DNA of 62,208 nucleotides, the filler included, from Asterionella formosa (Eukaryota): NCBI GenBank assembly GCA_002256025.1. It is 24 parts of 24 records of this genome, joined end to end, with 100 filler letters (N's around TTAATTAATTAA, not from the genome) between each part and the next. Parts side by side here need not be neighbours in the genome. Positions count along the whole stretch, not along the records: positions 26,031 to 28,526 come from NKIB01015192.1; positions 28,627 to 31,122 come from NKIB01015193.1; 22 more parts are not named here. One strand, given 5' to 3'. Position numbers and translations under genes: made by a program. Shown here in pieces: positions 2-60,430 of the stretch (positions are counted from its first letter, which is position 1; each line of letters starts with the position of its first letter). The notes under the pieces are model-generated. The model made no database searches, was not told where the DNA came from, and saw only the letters and a program-made list of their open reading frames with translations.

Positions 2-1519
2 AATGAAGCTTTTACTAAGGATCGTGACTCCATATTCCTTGATAATGGTACTCTTGGAAGTGCTGCTCATCGATACTGTCAACAGCTTGTTGAACTTCTG
101 GCAGGTCATCATGACGAAGTTCGACAATACTGTCGTGCTGAGCGAGTGAAAAGCCATGGTCTCAGGAAAGGGTCTGCTACCCATGCAACAAGTGGAACCA
201 CTGTTCCTCCACCACTTCCATCAGTGGCTAGACGAGGTGAATGGAGCCAAGGAACTATCTTTGACATATATTTTTTGTTTGCAGAACCTGGTGATCAATA
301 CCTTGGGCGATGTCTTGCAGGCCTCCCAGCACCTAATGCAGTTGATTTCGCGGTTCTCCCACCACATTTCATTTATGGTATGGAAAATGATGATGTCAAG
401 CAGGCATTACAGATATGTTTTGGTTGCATCATTGACTTGTATGAGGAGAGACAAAGTGGGGGTATAATTGGTGTTTTACTCTACTTCCTTGCATCAGTTG
501 TTTATCACATGGATGCCTTTGTTAAACCTGTAATTGAGAAACAACCAAACCACCCATTTTCAGCAATTCCACTATTGCAATATCCTGGCCTCCTTCAGCG
601 CTTGCAAAAATTTGTGACACTTGATAGAACTGACAACGTGCCCCAAGCCACAGGGATCCCACCACATATTGATCACTCACAAAAATTGAGTGAGATTCTT
701 CTAAAAGTCACTCAGATAACATCAATGATGATGCATCAGACAGAGGAAATCAAAGCTTCTGTAGTTCAAGCAATTGAAGAGCATGACATCTGTGGTGGTG
801 TCATTACAATCGATTTTCTAAACAATCGGTTGAAAGAGCATCACAAACAGCTTGAACAGGTGCTTTGTGATCAGCTTCAACAAGGTGGAATAACAAATGA
901 TCAGGTAGCTCGACCACTCCCTGAACAAGAACACCAACAAGATCAACAGAAGGGGATAGATCATACTTTGTACTGCTATGATGGAAAGTTTTGGCAGGTC
1001 CCAAGGGGTTGGCAGTTTCCTGAAAAGATTCTCCGCCGGACAGGGTGGAGTCTATGGCTAAATGGACAAGCAGGCATTGTCAGACCATTTCGCCTTCTTG
1101 ATCCACCGTCACTATCCCCTGACAAGAAGCTCCGGGATAGACTGAAATTAGAGTGGAGACCATTTTTCCAAATGATGGAACAAGCACCAGACATGGAGAT
1201 TCCAACAGGGTCACACAATGTTACACCAGAATTTGTTGAGCAATCATTCCTGCAGGGAACTTATTATCTCAAGGCAAGAGCTGGATATGTTTGGGAGCGT
1301 TCAACAAGACCTGAAGTTCTTACTATCAGCTCATGGTCTAAACATGTTCAGCGGAGTAACATTGAGAAGTTGGGGAATGATACTAATGACCGTGCCAATC
1401 TTCCACCTCCAGATCGGCACAATGCTCCCCACAGCAATATACGGCAGCGGCGGCGCCAGCTTGCACCTAAGGTACTTGATCAAAGAAGAAGAGTTTGTCA
1501 GAGACACAATTCTCCTTGA
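2..1519 (+). CDS. Crypton-like (CryptonS-type) tyrosine recombinase, 5'-truncated
   Basis: The frame is open from position 2. It has YR catalytic motifs SHGLRKG (HxxR), RGEWS and DIY, then GDQYLGRCLAGLP..FAVLPPHF and a C-terminal DGKFWQVP..FP..W.LW..G..PFRLL block typical of stramenopile Cryptons. Confidence 0.8.
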   Translation, partial: NEAFTKDRDSIFLDNGTLGSAAHRYCQQLVELLAGHHDEVRQYCRAERVKSHGLRKGSATHATSGTTVPPPLPSVARRGEWSQGTIFDIYFLFAEPGDQYLGRCLAGLPAPNAVDFAVLPPHFIYGMENDDVKQALQICFGCIIDLYEERQSGGIIGVLLYFLASVVYHMDAFVKPVIEKQPNHPFSAIPLLQYPGLLQRLQKFVTLDRTDNVPQATGIPPHIDHSQKLSEILLKVTQITSMMMHQTEEIKASVVQAIEEHDICGGVITIDFLNNRLKEHHKQLEQVLCDQLQQGGITNDQVARPLPEQEHQQDQQKGIDHTLYCYDGKFWQVPRGWQFPEKILRRTGWSLWLNGQAGIVRPFRLLDPPSLSPDKKLRDRLKLEWRPFFQMMEQAPDMEIPTGSHNVTPEFVEQSFLQGTYYLKARAGYVWERSTRPEVLTISSWSKHVQRSNIEKLGNDTNDRANLPPPDRHNAPHSNIRQRRRQLAPKVLDQRRRVCQRHNSP

Positions 1520-2385
1520 AATTACTAGTGAATATTTATATAAATATATATCATATTATGTATATACTATACAAAGCAAGTAACTGGTACACAAGAGGTG
1601 TAGCCAGAGATGTTCTAGTTAAAAGCAAGTGAGAAGTACAGCAGAGTTTCAGCAGGCACTACTGGCTGGCTGATGGGTTTTTTTAAAGGCTTTTTATGGA
1701 TTACAAAACACACCACTGTTGCCTCTCCTCAGCCAGTGGAGCTGCTTGCTTTCGAGGTCAGCAGTGTGCAAACCACCAGTCAGCAAATTATACAATGCAA
1801 TGGTGAGTTTCTTCTCTTCAATTGCTGGGATGTATATTAGATTATCTAGGTGCAGATGGGTTAGGTGTGTATTATATATCTGGCTGGATACCCATACTTT
1901 TCTACACATTTGCGAGACTAAACAATACTGGTTGCTCCGTCTCATATCCTACAGTCGTAACTGTGTTCGTACCAGGTACCAGGTACTCCGAGTACCTGGT
2001 ATTTCATTTTACATGGTGCGTGCATATGATGCTGTGTATCATTGGATGCATATTGCCGTAGCACCACAGCAGTGGAATATTCTCACCAGCATAATACCCG
2101 GTAGATACTAAGATTATAAAATGAATACCGGTACATATGATGGCTCGACAGCTGCATATAACGGACTGACGTACGGACATTCTACAGGAACATCTAAGCC
2201 GCGTATTACGTGAAGTGACCATCACGTAAATAAGCCTAGTTGATTTTGAATGCATCACATGAATTAGTTGAATACATCAAAATACGTAGTTGAACATGTC
2301 TATATATTATCTGAATACATCACGTTAAATATTTGATCAAAGTATCATGCATGCATTCCTGATCATCACTATATTATGTGATCAC

Positions 2386-2512
2386 CTTCACATAATTATT
2401 TGAAATACTTCACATAATTATTTGAAATACTTCACATAATTATTTGAAATACTTCACATAATTATTTGAAATACTTCACATAATTATTTGAAATACTTCA
2501 CATAATTATTTG
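2386..2512. repeat. 22-bp tandem repeat (CTTCACATAATTATTTGAAATA), about 5.8 copies, running into the contig end
   Basis: Perfect copies are directly visible. The unit contains the near-palindrome TTCACATAATTATTTGAA. Confidence 0.95.
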
Positions 2513-2612
2513 NNNNNNNNNNNNNNNNNNNNNNNNNNNNNNNNNNNNNNNNNNNNTTAATTAATTAANNNNNNNNNNNNNNNNNNNNNNNNNNNNNNNN
2601 NNNNNNNNNNNN
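2513..2612. other. Artificial contig linker (first of 23)
   Basis: N44-TTAATTAATTAA-N44, with stops in all six frames. The same linker starts at 5121, 7726, 10331, 12935, 15538, 18139, 20737, 23334, 25931, 28527, 31123, 33719, 36315, 38911, 41507, 44099, 46691, 49279, 51870, 54456, 57041 and 59625. Confidence 0.99.
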
Positions 2613-3164
2613 ATCCTGGACTCGGAGTAATTTGGTGCGGCGTTCTCCAGTGATCGTCAGGTATTCGCAGGAGCGCATTGCGAAGAAAAAGGCTAGGATG
2701 GCTAGAGGACCCAGGCAAACATCAACCGGTGTAGCTTGGTGAAAATACAATTTTAAAATAAAGTCAATTGTTAACGCCCGCTGGTGTTTGACGGCTGGAT
2801 CGGTGTGTCTGTAGGCCGACAGCTGGAGGCGTAAAATTCGGTGAGTTTTGCCGTGTATGTTGATAGTGGGGTCGGGTCGGTCATGCTCCACAAAGGTCGC
2901 CGAAAGAGATGCGATGGTATCGCGGACTGTTGCCGATGCGAGAGGAGTGTCTCGATGTGCGCTGAACTCGGCTTGCAGGATGGCGTGCGCGAAGGCTCCG
3001 ATGAGTTGGGTGCGGTTTTCTGGGGAGAGGTGGACGAGGAAAGGGTCAGTGGCAGCGCAGAATCCGATGGAGCCCAAGAATTCTTTCCAAATGCGGAAGA
3101 CGTGAGTGTACTTCGCTTTGGTATTAGTTTGAAGCCCTTGGTAGCGCGCTCTCTCTGCGTCCAT
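2613..3164 (-). CDS. Tyrosine recombinase of the DIRS/Ngaro element (N-terminal part, cut by the contig end)
   Basis: A core-binding-like N-terminus (W..FL; ATVRDTIASLS) is followed by LAILAFFFAMRSCEY, containing the catalytic Arg. Confidence 0.85.
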
Positions 3165-3241
3165 AAGGTAAGTCTGGAGGCGATTTCGGTGGGAATCGGC
3201 GAGATGTCGAAATTCGTGAGAATCTGATGGGCAGCAGAGGA

Positions 3242-4723
3242 TTAGAGGAGGTGTGTTAGTTGAAGCGGCGAAAGGTGGTGGTCGCGTGAAAGGGAGTCGG
3301 CGATGATGTTGTCTTCTCCCGGGATCCAGTGACTGAAGCTACAGGCTTGTGCTGTGTCCAGTATGTCAGCGAGCCATCGTGAGATGGCAAGGTGGGTCGA
3401 TTTTTCGTGTCCCTGGAACCTGGCTCCGCCGCGATGGAGCCAATAATCTGCCGTGGAGCTGTCGAGTTGAGAGAGAATACAAGCATCGGGTTGAATGTTC
3501 CCTGCCGCAGCCTCCATCGCGATGGTAGTGATTGATGCGAGATATTCTAGGAGGTTCAGGGACAATTTTCCGCGGTCAGCCATCGGAATTTCCCACCTCC
3601 AGGCTTGGACGGTCGTCAGGGAGAAACCGCCTATGCCGTGTTGGCATGCGTCGGCTCGGAGGAGAATTGTGGGGACGCGAAGAGTCAGCCTGTTGAGGCT
3701 AATGCCTCTTCGAGCGCTGCGGAGGAAACCAATGCATTGCCGCGCTTCATCCGTTTGTAACTCGTTTAAAATCACGCTCTTGCCGCTGGCCCGTGCTCGA
3801 CGTTCCACTCGTCGAAGGTGACACAAAAAGGCTCGGGCTGTTGGAATGACATAGGAGGCGTGATTCAGTCTGCCAATTGTTGTGGCTAAAATTTCACAAT
3901 CAACTGAGTGTAGCTGCAGGATTCGATCTATTTCTGCATTCCAGGATTTGAGTTTTTCCTGTGGCAAGTGCAGCCGAAGGGTGCGTGTGTTGACCTCCCA
4001 CCCTAGAATGATCTTGGATTCTTCAGGGGAAACTTCGGCTAACATCTTGTCAAATGCTAGAGGGTCATCGCGTTGAAGGGGTTCAGTGTCGGCCATCGGG
4101 CGACCCAGTAGGTGTAGCGTAAGTAGTGTAATTCGGGAACCCTTCCATATTGGTGTAGGTAGGTCAAGAAAGCAGGTGAAAAGGACGTCTAGATAGCAGT
4201 CGGTGAATGGTTCGAGGTCGGGGTAGGTCGAAATGAGTGTGGGTAGTGCGGGTTGACAGGGCGATTTGCTGCTGAGATAGCACGGTTTCCTAACATATTT
4301 GTGTTGGTGTGGGGATTCCAAGTTAGGAGTGGAATCCGGATTCCATGAGGTGTCACGTGTGATGAGGTTGCACGTGTTGCAGGCGATTTCGGATACGTCG
4401 CTCCACATGCTTGGGTTTGGTGCTCCGCCGAACGTCATGCGTAGTGCGAGCAGGGTAATGTCATCTACAATGACAATCGCTTGTGAGGCTGTGGTACCGG
4501 ATGTATGTAGGCGACGATATGCAGCTTTGATGTCTAATTTAGTCATTAGACTCCGAGTGTCTGGATTGATTTGTCGTAGTTTCACAATGTAGTGGATAAA
4601 TCGCCGTAGAGCTGTGCCATAGCGACATGGTGTCAGTCTGTCGAATATCACTCATGAGTTTACGGATGTCCCTTTCGAGAACTCAAATGACTGGTCGTGT
4701 GTCAATCGGTCTTTTGGGATTAT
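3242..4723 (-). pseudogene. Reverse transcriptase-RNase H of the DIRS/Ngaro element
   Basis: RT motifs are KDRLTHDQSF, KLDIKAAYRRL, MTFGGAPNPSMW and YLDV (degenerate YxDD). RNase H motifs are DACQHGIGG, NLLEYLA, DSSTA and HWIPGEDNIIADSLSR. There is an in-frame TGA at 4652-4654 and a probably premature TAA at 3242-3244. Confidence 0.88.
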
Positions 4724-28484: not shown

Positions 28485-28769
28485 AACATTAACATTTAAT
28501 TTATAAAAGGCGAGGTAGAGATATACNNNNNNNNNNNNNNNNNNNNNNNNNNNNNNNNNNNNNNNNNNNNTTAATTAATTAANNNNNNNNNNNNNNNNNN
28601 NNNNNNNNNNNNNNNNNNNNNNNNNNGGGGGGGGTCCAGCAGGACAATGAAGTATACGGTATTCTGGTAAGCCTTGGTAGTCTTCTACTGAGGACAGATA
28701 ATGCCTCCGAGGTATTGGCAAATATTTACGTGGTCAGTATTAGATATGAACCAGCTCAAAATTCTACCA

Positions 28770-29959
28770 GGTAGAATTTTTTGTCTTGTTTTGGTAGTAT
28801 ATTCTACGAATCATAATAACTAGGTTAGGGTTAACAGTGATATTTTATTTTCAAGAAAATTCTTTGCTCATGAGTGGTTCACTTGGAGCAGTTTTATTGG
28901 TCTTTGCTGCACTTAACAATGCTATTTTACTTCACTTCAAGATTAGCGATTGGAATCTTCAAGTATGGTTTGTTGGTGTGCTGGGTATAATTTAGTACTC
29001 AACAGGAAAGGCTATGCTCCCAGATCCAAAGATTCACCCCTGATACACTCGCAACCTCTTTGCCAAGGTTGAAAACTGCCTTGCTTTCGTAGTTTGCAGT
29101 TCATATCCATTTCTATCCTGATATTTGGAATGGGTGTGGTTAGGGAAAAGTGTGTATAACCATGTACCATGCAAAACTATTAGCTTGTCCATGAAGGTTT
29201 AGTGGTGATGGCGTTCCTCCAGTTGTGGTGGTTCCAATGGACATAACAGCACCATGTACAGTTGGAAGTTGTGTTAATGTTGAGGGGAAAATTCAACAAT
29301 TAACAAGCAGGCAACAATTTGCAAATAGAGTTGGACCTCATTATGGTTCTGGCCTACAAGCAAATTTATGTAGTCCCAGCAAGGCTCCAAAGTCACAAGG
29401 ACTTTGTGAAGTTGGAATTGCAGAGAGAAAGTCCGCCAGGCTATTTACAAGGCTTGAGAGGGGGAATAAATGCTATTATTATCGGGTAAGTTACAGAGCA
29501 GATTACCGGAAGTTGTGGTTACAGTGCTCATACAATGATCAACAGAATATATGAGGCATATTGTCAAGAACTTTCAGCGACCCACATTCTCAACAAAATG
29601 CTTATTGATTGATGCACTGGTGGAAATCCACAACTACGTATCTAGTTTATTACTACCACATTAAGTAGCATGCACACTATTACTTTCTCATTGTTTCCAT
29701 GTAATGTCATTCATTTGATTTGATTTGATTTACCCATGTGTTAATATGTATTGTAGCTAGGAGTACCATGTTATGATAGCCGAAACAAACTAAATGATCA
29801 CTGTACATATACAACAAATATTGCATTGCACGACGAAGTACCTGATACCAGGTACCTGATGGTCGTGCTGATGATATGCAAACATTCATGATCAGGTACT
29901 GGCTTTGTACACGGTGATAGTAAACTACTAGTGCACTGGCTTCTACTACGGGTAGCATT
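28770..29959 (+). mobile_element. Internally deleted, non-autonomous copy of the GCR1_C-type Crypton-like family
   Basis: The 5' motif matches 33093-33133 (reverse complement) and the 3' block matches 34731-34764 (reverse complement). The decayed coding remnant SKAPKS..EVGIAERKSARLFTRLERG..SAHTMINRIYEAY..ILNKML..GGNPQLR matches the ORF at 34974-35735. Confidence 0.8.
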
Positions 29960-30536
29960 TTCTATCGAATAAAAAGTGAATACCTATATAGTATTTGTAT
30001 GCATAATACCAATGACCATACTACCTGGTAGTAGTGTAAGGCATTACCAGGAGTACCTGGTACACCACACTCATTGCTCTGTTCACCACAGTTTCCTATA
30101 CACTGCTGTTTCACCAGATTTTAACATGAAAAAAAATCATATGAAAAAGTATTTTTACCTAATAATGACTTATAATTGTTTATTAAATTCGTTCATACAT
30201 TTTGCAGAACATTTGCAAGACACACTGCAACCATCATGAAATTTCCTTAAAGCATCCACAAGCATTTGTGCATTCTTTCAGATGCTTACACCTTCATTTT
30301 GACTTGCTATCTTGAGGATAACACAAAGCATGAGCTTGCTGCATACTTATTTTTCAATAATTTTCACTAACGAAAGTTCCATCAAGGATTGCTTGTCTCT
30401 TTTCATTCAAATACAGTGAAATGACTGCCTCATTTGGATGAACAATGTATCTTTCTTGAGATATAGTAATCAAGAATCAATTAACGCTCTTCTTTTGTCA
30501 AATTACACTTGTTAAGATTAAGCTGTGGCAAAAATT

Positions 30537-32719: not shown

Positions 32720-33133
32720 CTATTTGCAGACGTAGTATTCCAGGGAAGAAGACTGGCCATGTGTTGGATTGTCATCATTGTTTGGATCAGGATGGCCATA
32801 GACTTTCATAGCCATCCATTTGTAGACATCCTCAGGTGTAACTTCCCCAAGTTCCTCTCGACTAAACTCATAGCTTTTAGAATATTCTATGCCATCTCTG
32901 TATGACATCACAGCAATTAGGACACTCTTGTAAACAGGGGATTGTGTAGGTTCATTCACTCTTCTTGTTGGCATTGTCGCCATATTGATATTTAGTTTAA
33001 TTTTTTTACTTCAATCCCATTTCATACCATGTTGTATCATGGTAGAATTTCTTGGACAATACCATGGCATACTGCAGGTTTTCATCGGTCCATTGGTAGA
33101 ATATTCTACCAAAATGTGAAAAAAAATTCTACC
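32720..33133 (-). mobile_element. 5' end and truncated N-terminal ORF (32720-32983) of a Crypton-like element
   Basis: YKSVLIAVMSYRDG..Y..FSREELGEVTPEDVYKWMAMKVYG.PDP..D.P..SSSLEYY resembles the N-terminus of stramenopile Crypton-like YRs. The upstream terminal motif is shared with 28770-28810. Confidence 0.7.
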
Positions 33134-33141
33134 CCCAGTAC

Positions 33142-33718
33142 TGTCAGAGTGTATCTGTTAGGCTGTTGATGTCGACAGGTGTCCGAAGACTAGGTAGTCT
33201 GAGGAATGTCTAAACGGAAATAGACAGGATTTATATAGCAGAAGAATCTGCAGACGAGCGGCGTGAGAAAGATCTTGACCGGTCATTCCAGGGCAGTACT
33301 GGAGCGCGCTAGAGTAGCGCCATATATTTCAACATGGTAGCGGGCTCGTTAGTACAAGTGGTACGAGGAAGAACGTGAAAACCACAGGTCGACAGTTCGA
33401 GTCCATCAGCAAGAACAGAAAGAAAAAGAGAGAAGAGAAAAAGAAAAACAGAGACGTAGAAAACGAGAAGGCACTATGAGAATTCCTGTAGGAAAGGATG
33501 TGTCGAGCATACACATTAGGATGATGTGGTATGTCGAGCATCAACAGGGGAGGGTGTCAGAGTGTGTCTGTTAGGCTGTTGATGTCGACAGGCGTGAGAA
33601 AGATCTTGACCGGTCATTCCAGGGCAGTACTGGAGCGCGCTAGAGTAGCGCCATATATTTCAACATGGTAGCGGGCTCGTTAGTACAAGTGGTACGAGGA
33701 AGAACATGAAAACCAGAG
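33142..33718 (+). mobile_element. Tandem TRIM-like miniature LTR retrotransposon (LTR-internal-LTR-internal, cut by the contig end)
   Basis: LTR1 33142-33334 (TGT..ACA), PBS-like TGGTAGCGGGCTCG at 33335, non-coding internal region of 220 bp, PPT AGGGGAGGG 33546-33554, LTR2 33555-33665 (internally deleted), and the same PBS again at 33666. Confidence 0.85.
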
Positions 33719-34973
33719 NNNNNNNNNNNNNNNNNNNNNNNNNNNNNNNNNNNNNNNNNNNNTTAATTAATTAANNNNNNNNNNNNNNNNNNNNNNNNNN
33801 NNNNNNNNNNNNNNNNNNCGAAGCAATGAAGTACAGCGAGGTGAACGCACATCATGTCATTTCAATATAATGTATGTAAGATAATATTTTATCCATTTCC
33901 AAAATGCACTGATGCCCACATCCCCCTTTGCTCTCGAAAAAGCTACTGCGAAACTTAGTCGTGACTGAATACAGATAGAAAAATGACCAGGGACTAAGTT
34001 CTCTTGGAGAATAATATAGCATACATTGTCCCTTCATGTTGCGTCACTCATCATCTTGTGCATCAGAGGTCGCAGCGCTGTGTAACCGGTAGGTGAAAGG
34101 TGCGAGAACTATCTACCGGTATGCTACATCAACAGTACCGCGGTACACCTATACCGGGTAACTGTACACGTCTATAATCATTTTTATATAACAGTACCGG
34201 CAGTCATCTTCACAAACGCCAATTTCAATCGAGGAGACATATCAGTTATTACAGTCATGTCCGTGACTGGCAGTTGTAATTTGCTCCTCCTCTGCCTTCC
34301 TTTTCTTGAATCGCCAGCCCAGCCACAACAAATTTGAAGGACTGTCAACTGCTGATCTGCCTGATATACTTTGCAAGTAGCAATGATCTTTGTTAGAAGC
34401 TGGCTGTCCACAGCCACATCGAGCGCGTTGGTGTGACATTAACAGTAGCTGTAACAGTAGCTATCATGACGATTGTGATCTTGCTTGCTTCCACGAAGTT
34501 CAAATGATAATGGGTGATAATTGAGTTGTGATACGTATAGGTACGAATATTCAAAACAAATGAATCGGTTATTTTACAATAGGTTGCTATTTCCTACTCA
34601 GATATTATGTAATATTTAGGGTCATACAACTCTGTTCATCGGTTTATGGTTACTGTAGATTGTAGATTGTCGAAGTGTATACTGTGCCAGTATTGACAAT
34701 TAATTCTACCCCCAATACTACCATTTTTTGCCGTAGTGAAAGCTAGTGCACTAGTAGTTTACTAGCATGACATTCAAAGCATGCACTGGAGTATGGTCTC
34801 GATCATTTTTGGCTTGGCAGTACATGTCAAATATTGCCTGTATGTAAATAGCCACAATATACCGGTTTATGCATGCTATCACATCATGCATGCGAAAATA
34901 AAATGAAGTCAGAATGTAAATTGTAAATCAAAGGAGAATGGAATGTAAGGATGTAGTAGTTTCTAAATAGTCA

Positions 34974-36313
34974 CTATGTAAATCTAGTTAGACGTAGTTG
35001 TGGATGCCCACCATTGTGGCGATCTTTCAACATTTGGTTGAGAATTTGAGTAACAGTCTTCTCTGGACCATATGCCTCATAGATTCGGTCGATTGCAGCA
35101 TGTGCAGTGGACCCAGCTCGAACAAGACCTGCCACTGTATCCCAGAAAACCTTGCGTCGATAATAGATAAATTTTGTCCTCCCCCTCTCTGCCCTTGTAA
35201 AAATTCTTGCTGGTTTTCGTCCTGTAATTCCAACTTCCCATTCTTGCCAAAGAACAAATAGTGTTTTTGGTGTCTTGGAAAGGCTACTATTGTAAACAGG
35301 ATCCAAAGCCATATTTGTTTGTTCGTTGTCGTTGCTTGCTTGGCTGTTGTTGTTGGTTCCTATGACAGCAACATTTTCGACATTTGAATTCGGGTTGTTG
35401 TTGGAATTTGTTATGCCGAAAGCAAAATTAGAAACACTGCCCCTGAGCATTTGTGCCGGCATCCGGGAAAGTCGATTCAAGCTTGTCTGCATCTTGCCCA
35501 TCCCTTTGGTCACGGTGCTTGTAAGGATGGAAATCTGGCTTTGAATCTCCTTCACCTCTCGTTGAATCTCCCTTTGCTGTGAGTACAGCCCAAGGAATTC
35601 GTTCTTGTTCCGGTTCCTCTGAATAAATGCATTGACGGCTTGTTGTTGTTGGTGCTGCTGTACGCCGCCTCCTCCATTATTTACTGTTGAAACTGCAGCT
35701 ACTCCTGTTGACACTTCAGCGACTTCTTCACCCACATCGTTCGAAAACTCATCTGGATCCCAGATCTCGTCAATGTAGAGTTCCGCCTCGCTCCATTCAC
35801 AACAATTAGCCGTTTCCCCACAGGATTTGTACCTGGTGGTAGATTACGTACAAGTGCGTATGCCATCTGGATCCGCTGTGTCAGCTTGCCTGGTAAGAAA
35901 CCCAGTAGACTTGGCTCAAAAGCCGCCCAAAGGAGTGGACGTGCCAGCGTTAGTGCCACATTACGCGGAAACTCCATGCATATATTTGGCACTACATATT
36001 GCAGAAGCCAATCATCAGACACACCGCTTTCTTCATTCAGAACATACTTGCATGGGCCGCCAATACAAAGGGCTGCCGCAACCTTGGCGTCTGGATAAGG
36101 TAGCTCAACATCAATGTAAGTGTCAACTTGTTCTGTGCGCCGTTTCCAGCGTCCACGGAAGGCAACATCATCCCGGGAGCAGCCATTTCGACGTGCATGT
36201 GTTGATGGGTACTTCCGAAGGCTGTGTGTGCCAATCAAACCATTGTTCATTCGTTTGAACTCACTACTTTCCCATACATCATCACGCAGAATTGTATAGG
36301 CCTTTCTTTTTGC
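34974..36313 (-). pseudogene. Crypton-like tyrosine recombinase, C-terminal half with a GCR1_C-like domain; one frameshift at about 35790
   Basis: YR motifs are GTHSLRKY (HxxR), RGRWK and VDTYID. The tail LSKTPKTLFVLWQEWEVGITGRKPA..ERG..YYRRKVFWD is GCR1_C-like. The frames join as IVVNG/EAELYIDEI. Confidence 0.82.
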
Positions 36314-38399
36314 ANNNNNNNNNNNNNNNNNNNNNNNNNNNNNNNNNNNNNNNNNNNNTTAATTAATTAANNNNNNNNNNNNNNNNNNNNNNNNNNNNNN
36401 NNNNNNNNNNNNNNTCCATTTGTGTGCCCGTTTGTTGAGTGCTCTGATCGCTTGCACCTCGTTCAATGTTGCTTTATAATCCATAACTTTCTTATTCGCT
36501 TTCTCACTCTCCTTCTACTCTGCTCTTCTTTTCTCCTAGTCTTATCGTCCAGTGCTTCCGTTCCCAGTTTAAAGCGTCCAGCCACCACATGAACCATTTA
36601 TTTTGCGCGATCGCCAATAGCGCCAACTGGCAAGTCATCTTATCAAGATTGATGCCCACCACATGCTTGTGGTGCTGGAGCAAGTTTCATGGTCTCAATG
36701 GAACACTTTTTTCGTTTGTATTTGTTCCCCCCCTTCTCACCGGAAGGTTGTGTTTGTTGAGTCTCATGCTGTTCCGGTCTATCGGCTAGATTATTGTTTC
36801 TCTCACTGCTGTGTTTATCTGCATTACATGTATCTGGTGTCAAAGTGGACGATGCAGTAGTGGTGGCTCTGGTTCCAAAGGTAAGTGTACTGCTAGTTTC
36901 GATTCGTTCTGCTGGGGAACAATCCAATAGCACTATAGAATTCAAACCCCCTACTACTAGATCTTTGCTGTCATTATTCAATTTCTTCAAAGGGTACTTC
37001 ACCATGTCTTTTGTTAGCCACGTTATTGTGTCAACTTTGTCTGCTACTAATAATCTAGATAGCAATAGCGCCACTTGGTAAAACAACTCCTCCACCGCTA
37101 GCCTTTCCAACATCTACTTCTCTGACATTGTTGTTTAGAACAAGCTTTACTAAATCCTTATCTAGAGACTTACAAATAACTCTGTACTTGCTCGAGGTTT
37201 GGTACTTCTTCGGTTCATTATACTAAGTTGTAACATCCGGAGAAATGAAAATGTGGTATATTGTGATGGTCTCGAGAGCATTTCAGGATGCATCTATGTT
37301 GACAGTACAAAATCACTAAATTGCTATGGTGTGAACTAGTGTGCATGTTTACATTGGGATGTCGCACACAATCGCGCCGTAATTATAATCCACCTCAAGA
37401 AAAGCGTTAAAGGAAGCTATATTAATTTGGAGTATAAAACATTATATGATATCGTATATGAATATAAAATGTCGGCCCAGCGAAACGAGGTAATTTTATT
37501 TTCTTCCGATGTGCCTCACTCAACATTTTCGCAGTCGTTTATCTCACCAACTGGAACACAACATCGATCGGGCGTTAAGACATCCTATATGTAGATGCGT
37601 GAAACAAATGACTTGTTCATAGTAAATATTGTCGTATTGCTAAAATTGAAAAAGTTTGTAGTACAAAATGTAAGATTACCCCGTTATAGTGGTCTAAGCA
37701 GTTCATAGTGGTCTTAAGCAGTTTTTGACTGGTACCAGGTACTTGTTGGTTATCCATACCGCATACTCCGGAGTTCACCACCTGGTACCAAGCGTGTAAA
37801 TCCCCGGAAACCCGGTGCAACATTGGTATCCTTTTAATATATTAATCACTCAGTTACTTGTAAATCCGTCAGGGACGACTTGATTGCAAGCACTCATTCC
37901 TCTCTCTCACCAGTAGGTTATTGATCCCTCCTGAATCATCAGGAACTGGATGTGCTCACCATTGCAAACTGTGGAACTCGATCTGGATGATGGGGGATTA
38001 TCGATTTGATGAAATGAAATTTTCGGATCTGCCTATTGATTTTGTGAGGAGGTGAAAAAAAATTTCGAAGTCGCAACTGTTGAAGGGCTCCAAAGACTAG
38101 ACCACCTTACTCAAGTCAAGGTTTCTCAGATTGTAAACTACCGGAAATTGAAATTATTTCTATATTATCAATTTTGCCAGCCAGTGGTCCTGCCAAATTC
38201 GATTCAAGACTTATACCGGCAGGTAACTGGTACCTGGTACCGGGCATCAAGTACCGGTACTCGCGCTAATTTCGATCCCATTTCCAGTCACTTAAGTCAT
38301 TTCACGACTTGACTCATTAGACTTGCAATATCAACCAAAGTCTTTATAACCTCACCATACAGCAAGCAAGCTGGTGTACCATGATGGACAGTGGTATGC

Positions 38400-56064: not shown

Positions 56065-56472
56065 CGGTACGCGGATGTCCAGTGATTATAATCTACTGGT
56101 ACCTGGTATCCAGGTACCCGTCGAGAATATAGAACCGGACTGTCAGTACACACAAGAAAATATTACATGTTTTTACAATGTGGCCGGCGTGGGTTTGCAA
56201 GACATCGCAAACCAGGCCAATCAAACAGAGGAATGCAATTCACGTTCACCAATCATATTATATATGTGGAAGCGGGCACTTACAATGGATTTTTTAGACA
56301 GGAGATTTTAGGACTAAAAATTCCGGCACACGACTACCATTCCGATGATGACGTTTCGGCACTTAATAATTCTGATTCCGATGTTTTTGCGACCGTAGAA
56401 AAGGCCGATTTTGTCGAGTTTTTGGACGACGATAGCTAAACGTTGGCTGGGTCTGACGGCGATTTAGATACA

Positions 56473-59415: not shown

Positions 59416-60430
59416 ACAATGTTGATAATGTGCCAGTAAGGTTGATGATAGCGTTGGTGGATGTTGGAGAAAATATTTTAGGAAAGAAAATCCCGGTATA
59501 AATTACCTACTACATATTGAATCGAATGAATCAAGAAAGAATATGGTACCAGAGAATTCGAAAACAATCTACGCCAACAGTAAAAACCCATAATTCTATT
59601 AAAACTCTTAGGAACGATTACAATNNNNNNNNNNNNNNNNNNNNNNNNNNNNNNNNNNNNNNNNNNNNTTAATTAATTAANNNNNNNNNNNNNNNNNNNN
59701 NNNNNNNNNNNNNNNNNNNNNNNNTGTGTGTTTGCATTTAATTTTTGTACTCATAATTCGGGCGCACCAGGAATTCCTATTTGACGTTTTCCATTAATGA
59801 ATTTATCTCTTTATTATGGCGCACGAGCGAAAGCGCAATGCCGTCGTAGTCATATTAAATAAATTTTAGTGGATACTAAATTAGTTTTCTAGAGGAGGAA
59901 TATTCTCATACCTGAATACGTATATAAAAGGTGATGCTTGCTCAATCGAGTAAACGTGAAAATATCCAATTTTCGCAATTTCACGTCGACAGCAACCTTT
60001 GGGCGATAATACCTAATTAACAATGTACACAATGCAACAATACAAGTACGGAAGTATTTACTCGCTATATAAATCTGAACAACTCGTTCGTGACAATAAA
60101 TAGCGTATCTTGTAAACTAAGTTCAAACCGTGCGTTTACTCCGTTTAGCGGTGGCTTACAGTTCAAAAGTCGCCGTAGCGGTGGCTTACAGTTTTTAAGT
60201 GGTACAGTAGATAGAAAACTATAGATCCTTTATGTATGGCACGGAATTATGTTCAAGGAATAAAATATACCGGGAATGCAAATTACTGGTACATAGCATT
60301 TTTGGTACTCGTTGTCACACCATGCTCAATGCATTGTTCTTGGTTTCAAAAAAGCATTCATTATCCATATGACCAGTGGATGATAATGACAAGTATTTAA
60401 CACACTGACGGAGATCGAACGACAAGGCCG

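Follow-up and report, generated by a model that had tools for sequence, protein, structure and literature searches.

The described systems closest to the locus studied here are Cryptons of the CryptonF type, and the passages of PMC3212892 that deal with them describe elements that are alike in having one open frame for a tyrosine recombinase (YR) with a C-terminal GCR1_C domain, a length of 2.5–3 kb, short imperfect terminal direct repeats and no terminal inverted repeats (TIRs). Those passages list CryptonF from fungi and oomycetes, with a CryptonS as the sole diatom element, and report non-autonomous derivatives from other Crypton groups. For CryptonF they set out the repeats only; no arm-spacer-arm site, triplet rule, subterminal box array or host-gene capture appears there. 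Since 2003 Crypton movement has stayed at the stage of a model, and that model did not account for the sole active case, in which clean excision goes together with copy gain (PMC9977147). This element, CryptonF-1_cRei of Chlamydomonas, is comparable in that a short terminus motif matches the target, excision is clean and copy number rises, but its motif is CACCG/CAYCG and the relevant sections of PMC9977147 give no spacer or strand model.

Among more distant systems, IntDOT of CTnDOT is alike in its 7-base overlap, imperfect inverted core sites, identity at one edge and arm-type sites; it differs, according to the parts of PMC2817482 on this enzyme, in being bacterial, in sharing two bases, in its varying coupling sequence and in completing both exchanges. 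Strand-biased circularizing elements (SEs; PMC9345347) and CTXphi (PMC3442271) are alike in that the YR makes a one-strand product and replication completes the reaction. As described in the pertinent parts of these papers they are, however, bacterial multi-gene or host-Xer systems, and SEs leave no empty donor site, in contrast to the clean excision reported for a CryptonF. Our literature search, outside which lay Repbase, Goodwin 2003, figures and bioRxiv supplements, found no published description of an arm-spacer site, a diatom CryptonF or a gene-capturing Crypton.

The window, a 62,208-nucleotide stretch of Asterionella formosa DNA, consists of 24 concatenated contigs of ~2.5 kb each, and the copy under study lies within contig 12 (28627–31122, G000:C15193). 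When the genome was searched with this copy, 139 candidates came up, and the 40 of them that were scored yielded 49 matches. Nine loci start aligning exactly at 28662, 96 bases to the left of the start at 28758 proposed in a preliminary description of this DNA, and intact copies of the family (family A) reach ~30 bases further left, an end that contig 12 is without. On the right, alignments to other copies end at about 29984–30001, typically near 29990–29994, which passes the proposed end at 29966 by 24–28 bases; the right end of the copy is 29990. Alignments running past the proposed ends had been named in advance as refuting them, and were observed on both sides. Compared with the copy L002, ~670 internal bases (L002 element positions 241–911) are absent. 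What had been called a complete miniature copy thus lacks its left end and these internal bases; the stretch belongs, as a truncated and internally deleted member, to a ~2.0-kb family of non-autonomous Cryptons, which we term A-N1. Its features are as follows.

28627–28661, plus strand: left flank up to the contig start, 8 G followed by 27 bases; neither the true left crossover site nor the first box is present.
28662–28863, plus strand: family A left subterminal remnant, with 84–85% identity to both L002 and L114, the latter a recombinase-bearing copy.
28758–28780, plus strand: inverted GGTAGAATT box pair flanking one base; subterminal, candidate arm-type protein-binding sites.
28791–28810, plus strand: imperfect 20-base palindrome, with a perfect counterpart in family B at 33093–33112.
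28863–28865, plus strand: junction of the ~670-base internal deletion, with short A/T microhomology.
28871–29165, plus strand: decayed captured fragment of host ATG9 (host codons ~489–585), oriented like the recombinase gene.
29194–29642, plus strand: 3' portion of the family A recombinase gene in decayed form, with the GCR1_C end; 74% identical to L114 and matching the intact family C protein by tblastn.
29915–29959, plus strand: conserved right subterminal block, comprising a TAGTGCACT palindrome core and a GGTAGCATT box (29951–29959).
29981–29993, plus strand: true right crossover site, with TAC at 29981–29983, spacer CTATATA at 29984–29990 and target-derived GTA at 29991–29993.
29991–30468, plus strand: right flank, part of an unrelated ~1.07-kb repeat that was the insertion target.

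The right crossover site is corroborated by 17 distinct family A right junctions that diverge beyond it, and blocks related to the right subterminal block occur in families B, C and D. The left flank has no match to intact family A left ends; 41 bases there match another locus, C9676, at 88%, and the C9676 sequence is not the right-flank repeat. Searches of the flanks of the contig 12 copy found neither an empty allele nor an intact left junction. As its left site has been lost the copy is probably immobile, and its value as a dead fragment is as a pointer to its family. A family A copy at L142 (G000:C480), compared with L139, has lost its left end at almost the same position. The ~1.07-kb flank repeat (L311:1091–2160) contains a cysteine-rich stretch and adjoins a B-like right end in L311.

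Several points of the preliminary description were borne out. All four motifs that it quoted are present in the window and the matches among contigs 12, 13 and 14 exceed chance: the 41-mer at 28770 has a counterpart at 33093–33133 (minus strand; 36/42 identical, E 1e-7 within the window) and the 34-mer at 29918 has one at 34731–34764 (33/37 identical). The 23-bp spacing of GGTAG motifs holds in contigs 12 and 13; the decayed GCR1_C-end remnant is present (tblastn, 29273–29485 and 29514–29642); the copy is non-autonomous as claimed, with the recombinase region replaced and the 3' gene remnant decayed; and the shared motifs do represent conserved cis elements, the order of the boxes being the same in families A–D.

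The proposal that contigs 12–14 belong to one family stood in part. Contigs 13 and 14 go together, as both map into single B copies (e.g. C12387), but contig 12 is family A: identity to contigs 13/14 is ~72–74% for DNA in the coding parts and 61% for protein over 140 amino acids, and the termini differ. Mapping and protein identity thus exclude a single family in favour of two, and contigs 13/14 are a sister family, B, with the same subterminal boxes; the earlier link from contig 12 to contigs 13/14 arose because A and B both carry the GGTAGAATT box. The family B features are as follows.

32732–33142, minus strand: family B fragment in contig 13, with boxes at 33133–33093 and the first ~84 codons (ATG at 32983); the true left end is absent.
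34683–36314, minus strand: family B 3' part in contig 14, a frameshifted YR C-terminal half and GCR1_C followed by the right end.
34692–34680, minus strand: contig 14 right crossover site, with TAC at 34692–34690, spacer TGGCACA at 34689–34683 and GTA at 34682–34680.

Adjoining the contig 13 fragment, ~150 bases inside its left end, is an LTR-like sequence (33143–33718) that has internal direct repeats and ends in CA; its relatives occur in contig 15, L014, L018 and L019. Two more families, C and D, were found by protein search, and A, B, C and D are 61–68% identical in protein. The loci with both ends measured 2033, 2054, 1704 and 960 bases for family A (n = 4), and 2640, 2282, 2728 and 2714 bases for family B (n = 4). 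The recombinase-bearing form of family A is ~2.75 kb (L114/L022), its gene being broken in every copy fetched, so that no intact family A recombinase frame was found among them. Subterminal boxes lie at conserved distances inside both ends, and their core letters are family-specific at both ends (B TCTA, C TCAA, D TAAA). Family C copies at L146–L149 are not alike in how long the stretch from stop codon to right end is or in what it contains, possibly through further cargo; it measures ~1.0 versus 2.0 kb in the two copies with a located end. At nine loci (L131–L137, L141 and L143) the left end of a family A element is found 10 bases past a family D right end, as a composite or in redundant contigs.

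The recombinase is best preserved in family C, in which a 650-amino-acid open frame runs off the contig start in four contigs; in family B a 313-amino-acid frame runs to the contig end in eight contigs, with 100% identity to the query over 43 matched residues. A homologue search with the family C frame gave 231 matches at E ≤ 0.001 among 7998 scored candidates, and L102 (family C) was aligned with 94 near-full-length homologues among 120 matches listed (95 rows). The R-H-R-Y residues of tyrosine recombinases were found in L102 and these 94 homologues: R137, K167, H255, R258, W281 and Y291 are kept in 93–95 of the 95 rows, and by motif analogy we take them to have the corresponding catalytic roles. 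The predicted structure (mean pLDDT 86.9) matches Cre and Flp (Foldseek E 2e-4), with Ndc10 just behind. The Pfam YR domain gave no hit on L102 and one below cut-off on homologue P0006, and a PDB sequence search with the homologue alignment returned nothing below E 0.6. GCR1_C lies C-terminal in the same frame, scoring 23.6 bits in L102 against a Pfam cut-off of 23 and 22.4 bits, slightly below cut-off, in the contig 14 frame; the contig 12 remnant has no Pfam hit, yet aligns by tblastn. The Crypton-like identity first proposed is thereby upheld, with GCR1_C above cut-off in family C and the YR residues conserved. The architecture of A–D is of the CryptonF type; CryptonS, which has no GCR1_C and mostly TATGG termini, was considered and rejected on the presence of GCR1_C and on the different termini. 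GCR1_C likely reads the subterminal boxes.

The Atlas clusters that neighbour the recombinase, used as a lead only, are of GCR1_C and NDC10_II from diatoms and fungi; the nearest cluster is eukaryotic and most commonly Bacillariophyta, with phylum known for three members only. All seven scored silicon-transporter matches in the genome pass the Pfam cut-off. YR+GCR1_C Cryptons are thus placed in a diatom-like host.

The true ends were read from a series of junctions. Junction loci were the best-scoring hits, 40 being scored out of 87–236 candidates in each DNA end search, a choice biased towards young copies. They were clustered by flank to count distinct sites, a procedure that may lump sites together or divide them; L070 fell into one cluster with L051 and hence went uncounted as an own-spacer left junction. 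Left junctions read TAC-NNNNxyz-element and right junctions element-TAC-own spacer-RTA. Here xyz is a family-specific triplet that the element has in common with its target, ATA in A, ACA in B, CTG in C and CCG in D; the element's own spacer is CTATATA in A, TGGCACA in B, CACCCTG in C and GTTCCCG in D. The family C triplet was read from left ends first and then matched at the C right end. Left junctions carried the own triplet in 16 of 19 cases for A, 16 of 16 for B, 26 of 27 for C and 18 of 21 for D (76/83 overall). TAY stood exactly 7 bases upstream at 72 of the 83, versus 21 of 393 xyz-RTA sites in the window (Fisher p ~1e-53, with sites that are not fully independent). For spacer positions 1–4, a background drawn from element loci was discarded as contaminated by element ends.

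The first four spacer bases behaved differently at the two ends, the element's own being present at 6/83 left versus 32/41 right junctions; at 77 of the 83 left junctions the target's were kept. Three of the six left junctions with the own four bases are head-to-tail joints, and the 9/41 right junctions without them include some TA-CCGG-type insertions and two with a TAGC variant. For family A, three of 19 left junctions carry the own four bases and position 4 matches in 14 of 19. Target arms conserve just three bases on each side, and the core arms are strongly symmetric in B (7/8), moderately so in A (6/8) and weakly so in C and D. Full copies have terminal direct repeats of ~6 bases (ACATTA/ACAGTA in B, ATARTA in A); there is no TIR and there are no long repeats, just short imperfect inverted arms and boxes. 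The crossover lies inside the shared triplet or at its right edge.

The preliminary description had advised a search for empty sites, and for copies other than that of contig 12 three uninterrupted paralogous sites were found, each reading TAC/CAC-N4-xyz-RTA with no extra bases.

L112, compared with L065/L069.
Window 59565–59582, compared with L040 (family B).
Window 56254–56269 and L036, compared with L024 (family A).

A definable recombination-site architecture, as anticipated, therefore exists, but it consists of TAC-N7-RTA sites and not of GGTAG repeats. In a metagenome set of 80 loci kept from 415, families E (CCG) and F (GTA), both multi-copy, obey the same rule; in a subfamily of F, CTA stands at either end. 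Family E has three flanked left sites, one reading TCG, and two flanked right sites; the family F arm is TAC in five and TAT in one of 10 distinct flanked or joined left sites, the others lying in TAC/TAG repeats.

From the way in which the 7-base spacer is inherited at these junctions we infer an exchange of one strand resolved by replication; judged from sequence, the one-sided inheritance would fit the single-strand-exchange YR systems (SEs, CTXphi). TAC and RTA/TTA would form the inner side of inverted core arms that enclose an overlap of 7 bases, and the recombinase would cut at the right edge of the overlap, where three shared bases would permit re-pairing. A second exchange would be blocked by the four unmatched bases and would add nothing to the product, and the junction would be resolved by replication or host repair. 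The presumed outcome is a circle with the element's own spacer and a clean empty site on one chromatid, the donor being retained on the other. One exchange followed by replication would account for the clean excision with copy gain described for Chlamydomonas in the relevant sections of PMC9977147. We consider it probable that contig 12 holds a damaged A-N1 copy with ATG9 whose intact relatives move by YR crossover at 7-base sites, probably with one strand pair swapped. Speaking against this reading are the T at +1 on the right junction L222, a spacer similarity that is greater in family A than in the other families, the mere three bases conserved per target arm, the weak arm symmetry of C and D, the nine right junctions lacking the own four bases, the absence of an intact family A recombinase frame among the copies fetched and the weighting of the loci towards young copies. 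The junction series gives exact donor and target sites and, together with a near-full-length open family C frame, a strand-specific prediction that can be tested.

More tentatively, and short of an even chance in our estimation, CryptonF may comprise eukaryotic copy-out recombinase transposons that combine a fixed protein-read TAC-N7-RTA site, a family-specific 3-base pairing code, a one-strand swap and host-gene packaging. If this copy-out reading is true, a single eukaryotic recombinase of ~700 amino acids would integrate cargo without a footprint and would be retargetable via three donor bases.

An exchange of both strands between the same elements and ends, across a 3-base overlap or, as with IntDOT, across 7 bases that are resolved to or selected for the own spacer, is an unlikely alternative even though it predicts every junction and empty site seen, with the 3-base overlap fitting equally well. 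IntDOT does complete both exchanges over a 7-base overlap with two matching bases (PMC2817482, in the parts cited above). Very short overlaps, however, stand against the 6–8 bases of known YR overlaps (PMC3212892, in the passages on this subject), and the CTnDOT coupling sequence varies by site whereas the right spacer here is fixed per family, so that a bias would be needed. Were both strands swapped, segregation of the 4-base heteroduplex would randomise the spacers over generations, and such randomisation was not seen.

We consider it improbable that the overlap is that of a classical Crypton, i.e. the 6-base terminal direct repeat xyz plus NTA, with the upstream TAC a mere target preference. 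This would match the 6-base repeats of CryptonF (e.g. TTGRTA) given in the part of PMC3212892 supplement 1 that lists them, and a B right junction in a C site from the metagenome (L222:2612–2640) does have T instead of G at +1; this exception can be explained if a tandem pair collapsed within TATTGAC, which is shared. A mismatched fourth base should, however, segregate both ways, and left junctions have T in 15/15 cases for B and 27/27 for C, while 12/13 B right junctions have G or A and the remaining one is a head-to-tail joint. The +1 base in family A mostly tracks an internal subfamily variant (15/20), and a classical overlap yields no symmetric arms. Finally, a miniature of the contig 13/14 family that is complete at 1.2 kb and has GGTAG(A/C/T)ATT direct repeats as its recombination sites can be dismissed almost outright: the GGTAG boxes are real, common to A and B and in direct orientation at 28770 and 29951, but as subterminal boxes, ~150 bases inside the left end and 32–40 inside the right, and present 4–5 times in the left end in both orientations, they are excluded as element ends by this multiplicity, by the multi-copy alignments that pass both proposed ends and by flanks that diverge elsewhere, and the termini of A and B differ.

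Returning to the one-strand exchange that we favour, and to the circle that it would produce, head-to-tail joints were found in families B, C, D, E and F, those of family B (L051, L070) being the expected joined site with 8-base inverted arms. Circles have been reported for Starships, and Crypton circles are cited as hypothesised, in the relevant part of a preprint (10.64898/2026.09.21.753150). The L070, L300 and L301 joints were rejected as proof of circles, as each combines an older B-like right end with a young B left end and so represents a genomic tandem; L051 and L223 are ambiguous (tandem or circle). Terminal overlaps among the 80 metagenome loci were likewise set aside, as L275 alone had one, within repetitive sequence. 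All 24 public runs listed are contigs, which drop rare variants, and X1 may be the source sample and not independent. At L036, some of 15 of 65 joints listed skip approximately the element length (1505 to 4221 in four contigs of X1 and one of X2); these resemble empty paralogues of the flanking repeat and are not base-exact. No go-back joint was seen among the same 15 of 65 in contigs with rare variants dropped, and the L051 joint was bridged with 31 bases on each side by 0 of 32 pieces listed of 944, also contigs.

A B-type right end also occurs within an internal site of family C at L302:1500–1522, L306 (minus strand) and L305 (G000 C4514, C12564 and C11331), where perfect 10-base inverted arms enclose the 7-base spacer in exactly inverted form; L299, L303 and L304 show the normal orientation. 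The inversion would be a recombinase error or a hairpin-loop flip, and it probably goes back to a single inherited event. This internal site is nearly identical to the B joined site (L065, L069, L178 and L181 versus L112), and gave 6 filled versus 28 empty hits, not deduplicated, as a hotspot or an amplified composite.

The ATG9 fragment in the interior of the contig 12 copy had no place in the first reading. Members of the 2.0-kb family have ~1 kb in place of the recombinase region, and two pieces of this cargo match, at 78% and 84%, a 958-amino-acid host frame in G000:C12814 (L190) that is identified as ATG9 (Pfam E 5e-116). The first piece covers the upstream region and roughly the first 100 codons and the second codons ~424–585, joined by a deletion; both are decayed by stops and frameshifts. 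The piece in contig 12 is 85% identical to L190 over 296 columns. When the genome was searched with the cargo, with all 26 candidates scored, C12814 was the only match identified as the host gene; C14808 represents an older derivative copy and the C6306 match spans 36 bases. Thirteen loci, chosen from 30 for holding cargo, are 77–85% identical to the host gene and 88–100% to L002; capture therefore preceded amplification. Neither piece shows an intron difference, and DNA and RNA capture are thus not told apart.

A-N1 is a Crypton derivative that spread fragments of a host gene, and in this it is alike to Pack-TYPE transposons, which the pertinent parts of PMC8903248 and PMC13317346 describe as non-autonomous elements whose interior consists of host gene fragments that are then amplified. 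Several A-N1 copies hold a host gene fragment between the element ends, as Pack-TYPE elements do. Pack-TYPE elements have TIRs, a DDE transposase and target duplications, whereas A-N1 has YR crossover ends and its empty sites show crossover, not duplication, with neither TIRs nor a target site duplication; it works like a Pack element, yet is not to be filed as one.

Short TA-CCGG-TA and TA-CCWGG-TA expansions break conserved blocks genome-wide, at many loci (e.g. L025, L034 and L072, and window 29840–29860), and look like excision footprints of a TA-targeting transposon. Elsewhere in the window, an open frame of 505 amino acids at positions 2–1519 has a YR-like H-x-x-R motif; the family C protein gave no tblastn match to this frame, which belongs to a different recombinase family. 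At positions 2613–4651 (minus strand), frames of RT/RNase H-like and YR-like type stand side by side, as might be expected of a DIRS/Ngaro-type element.
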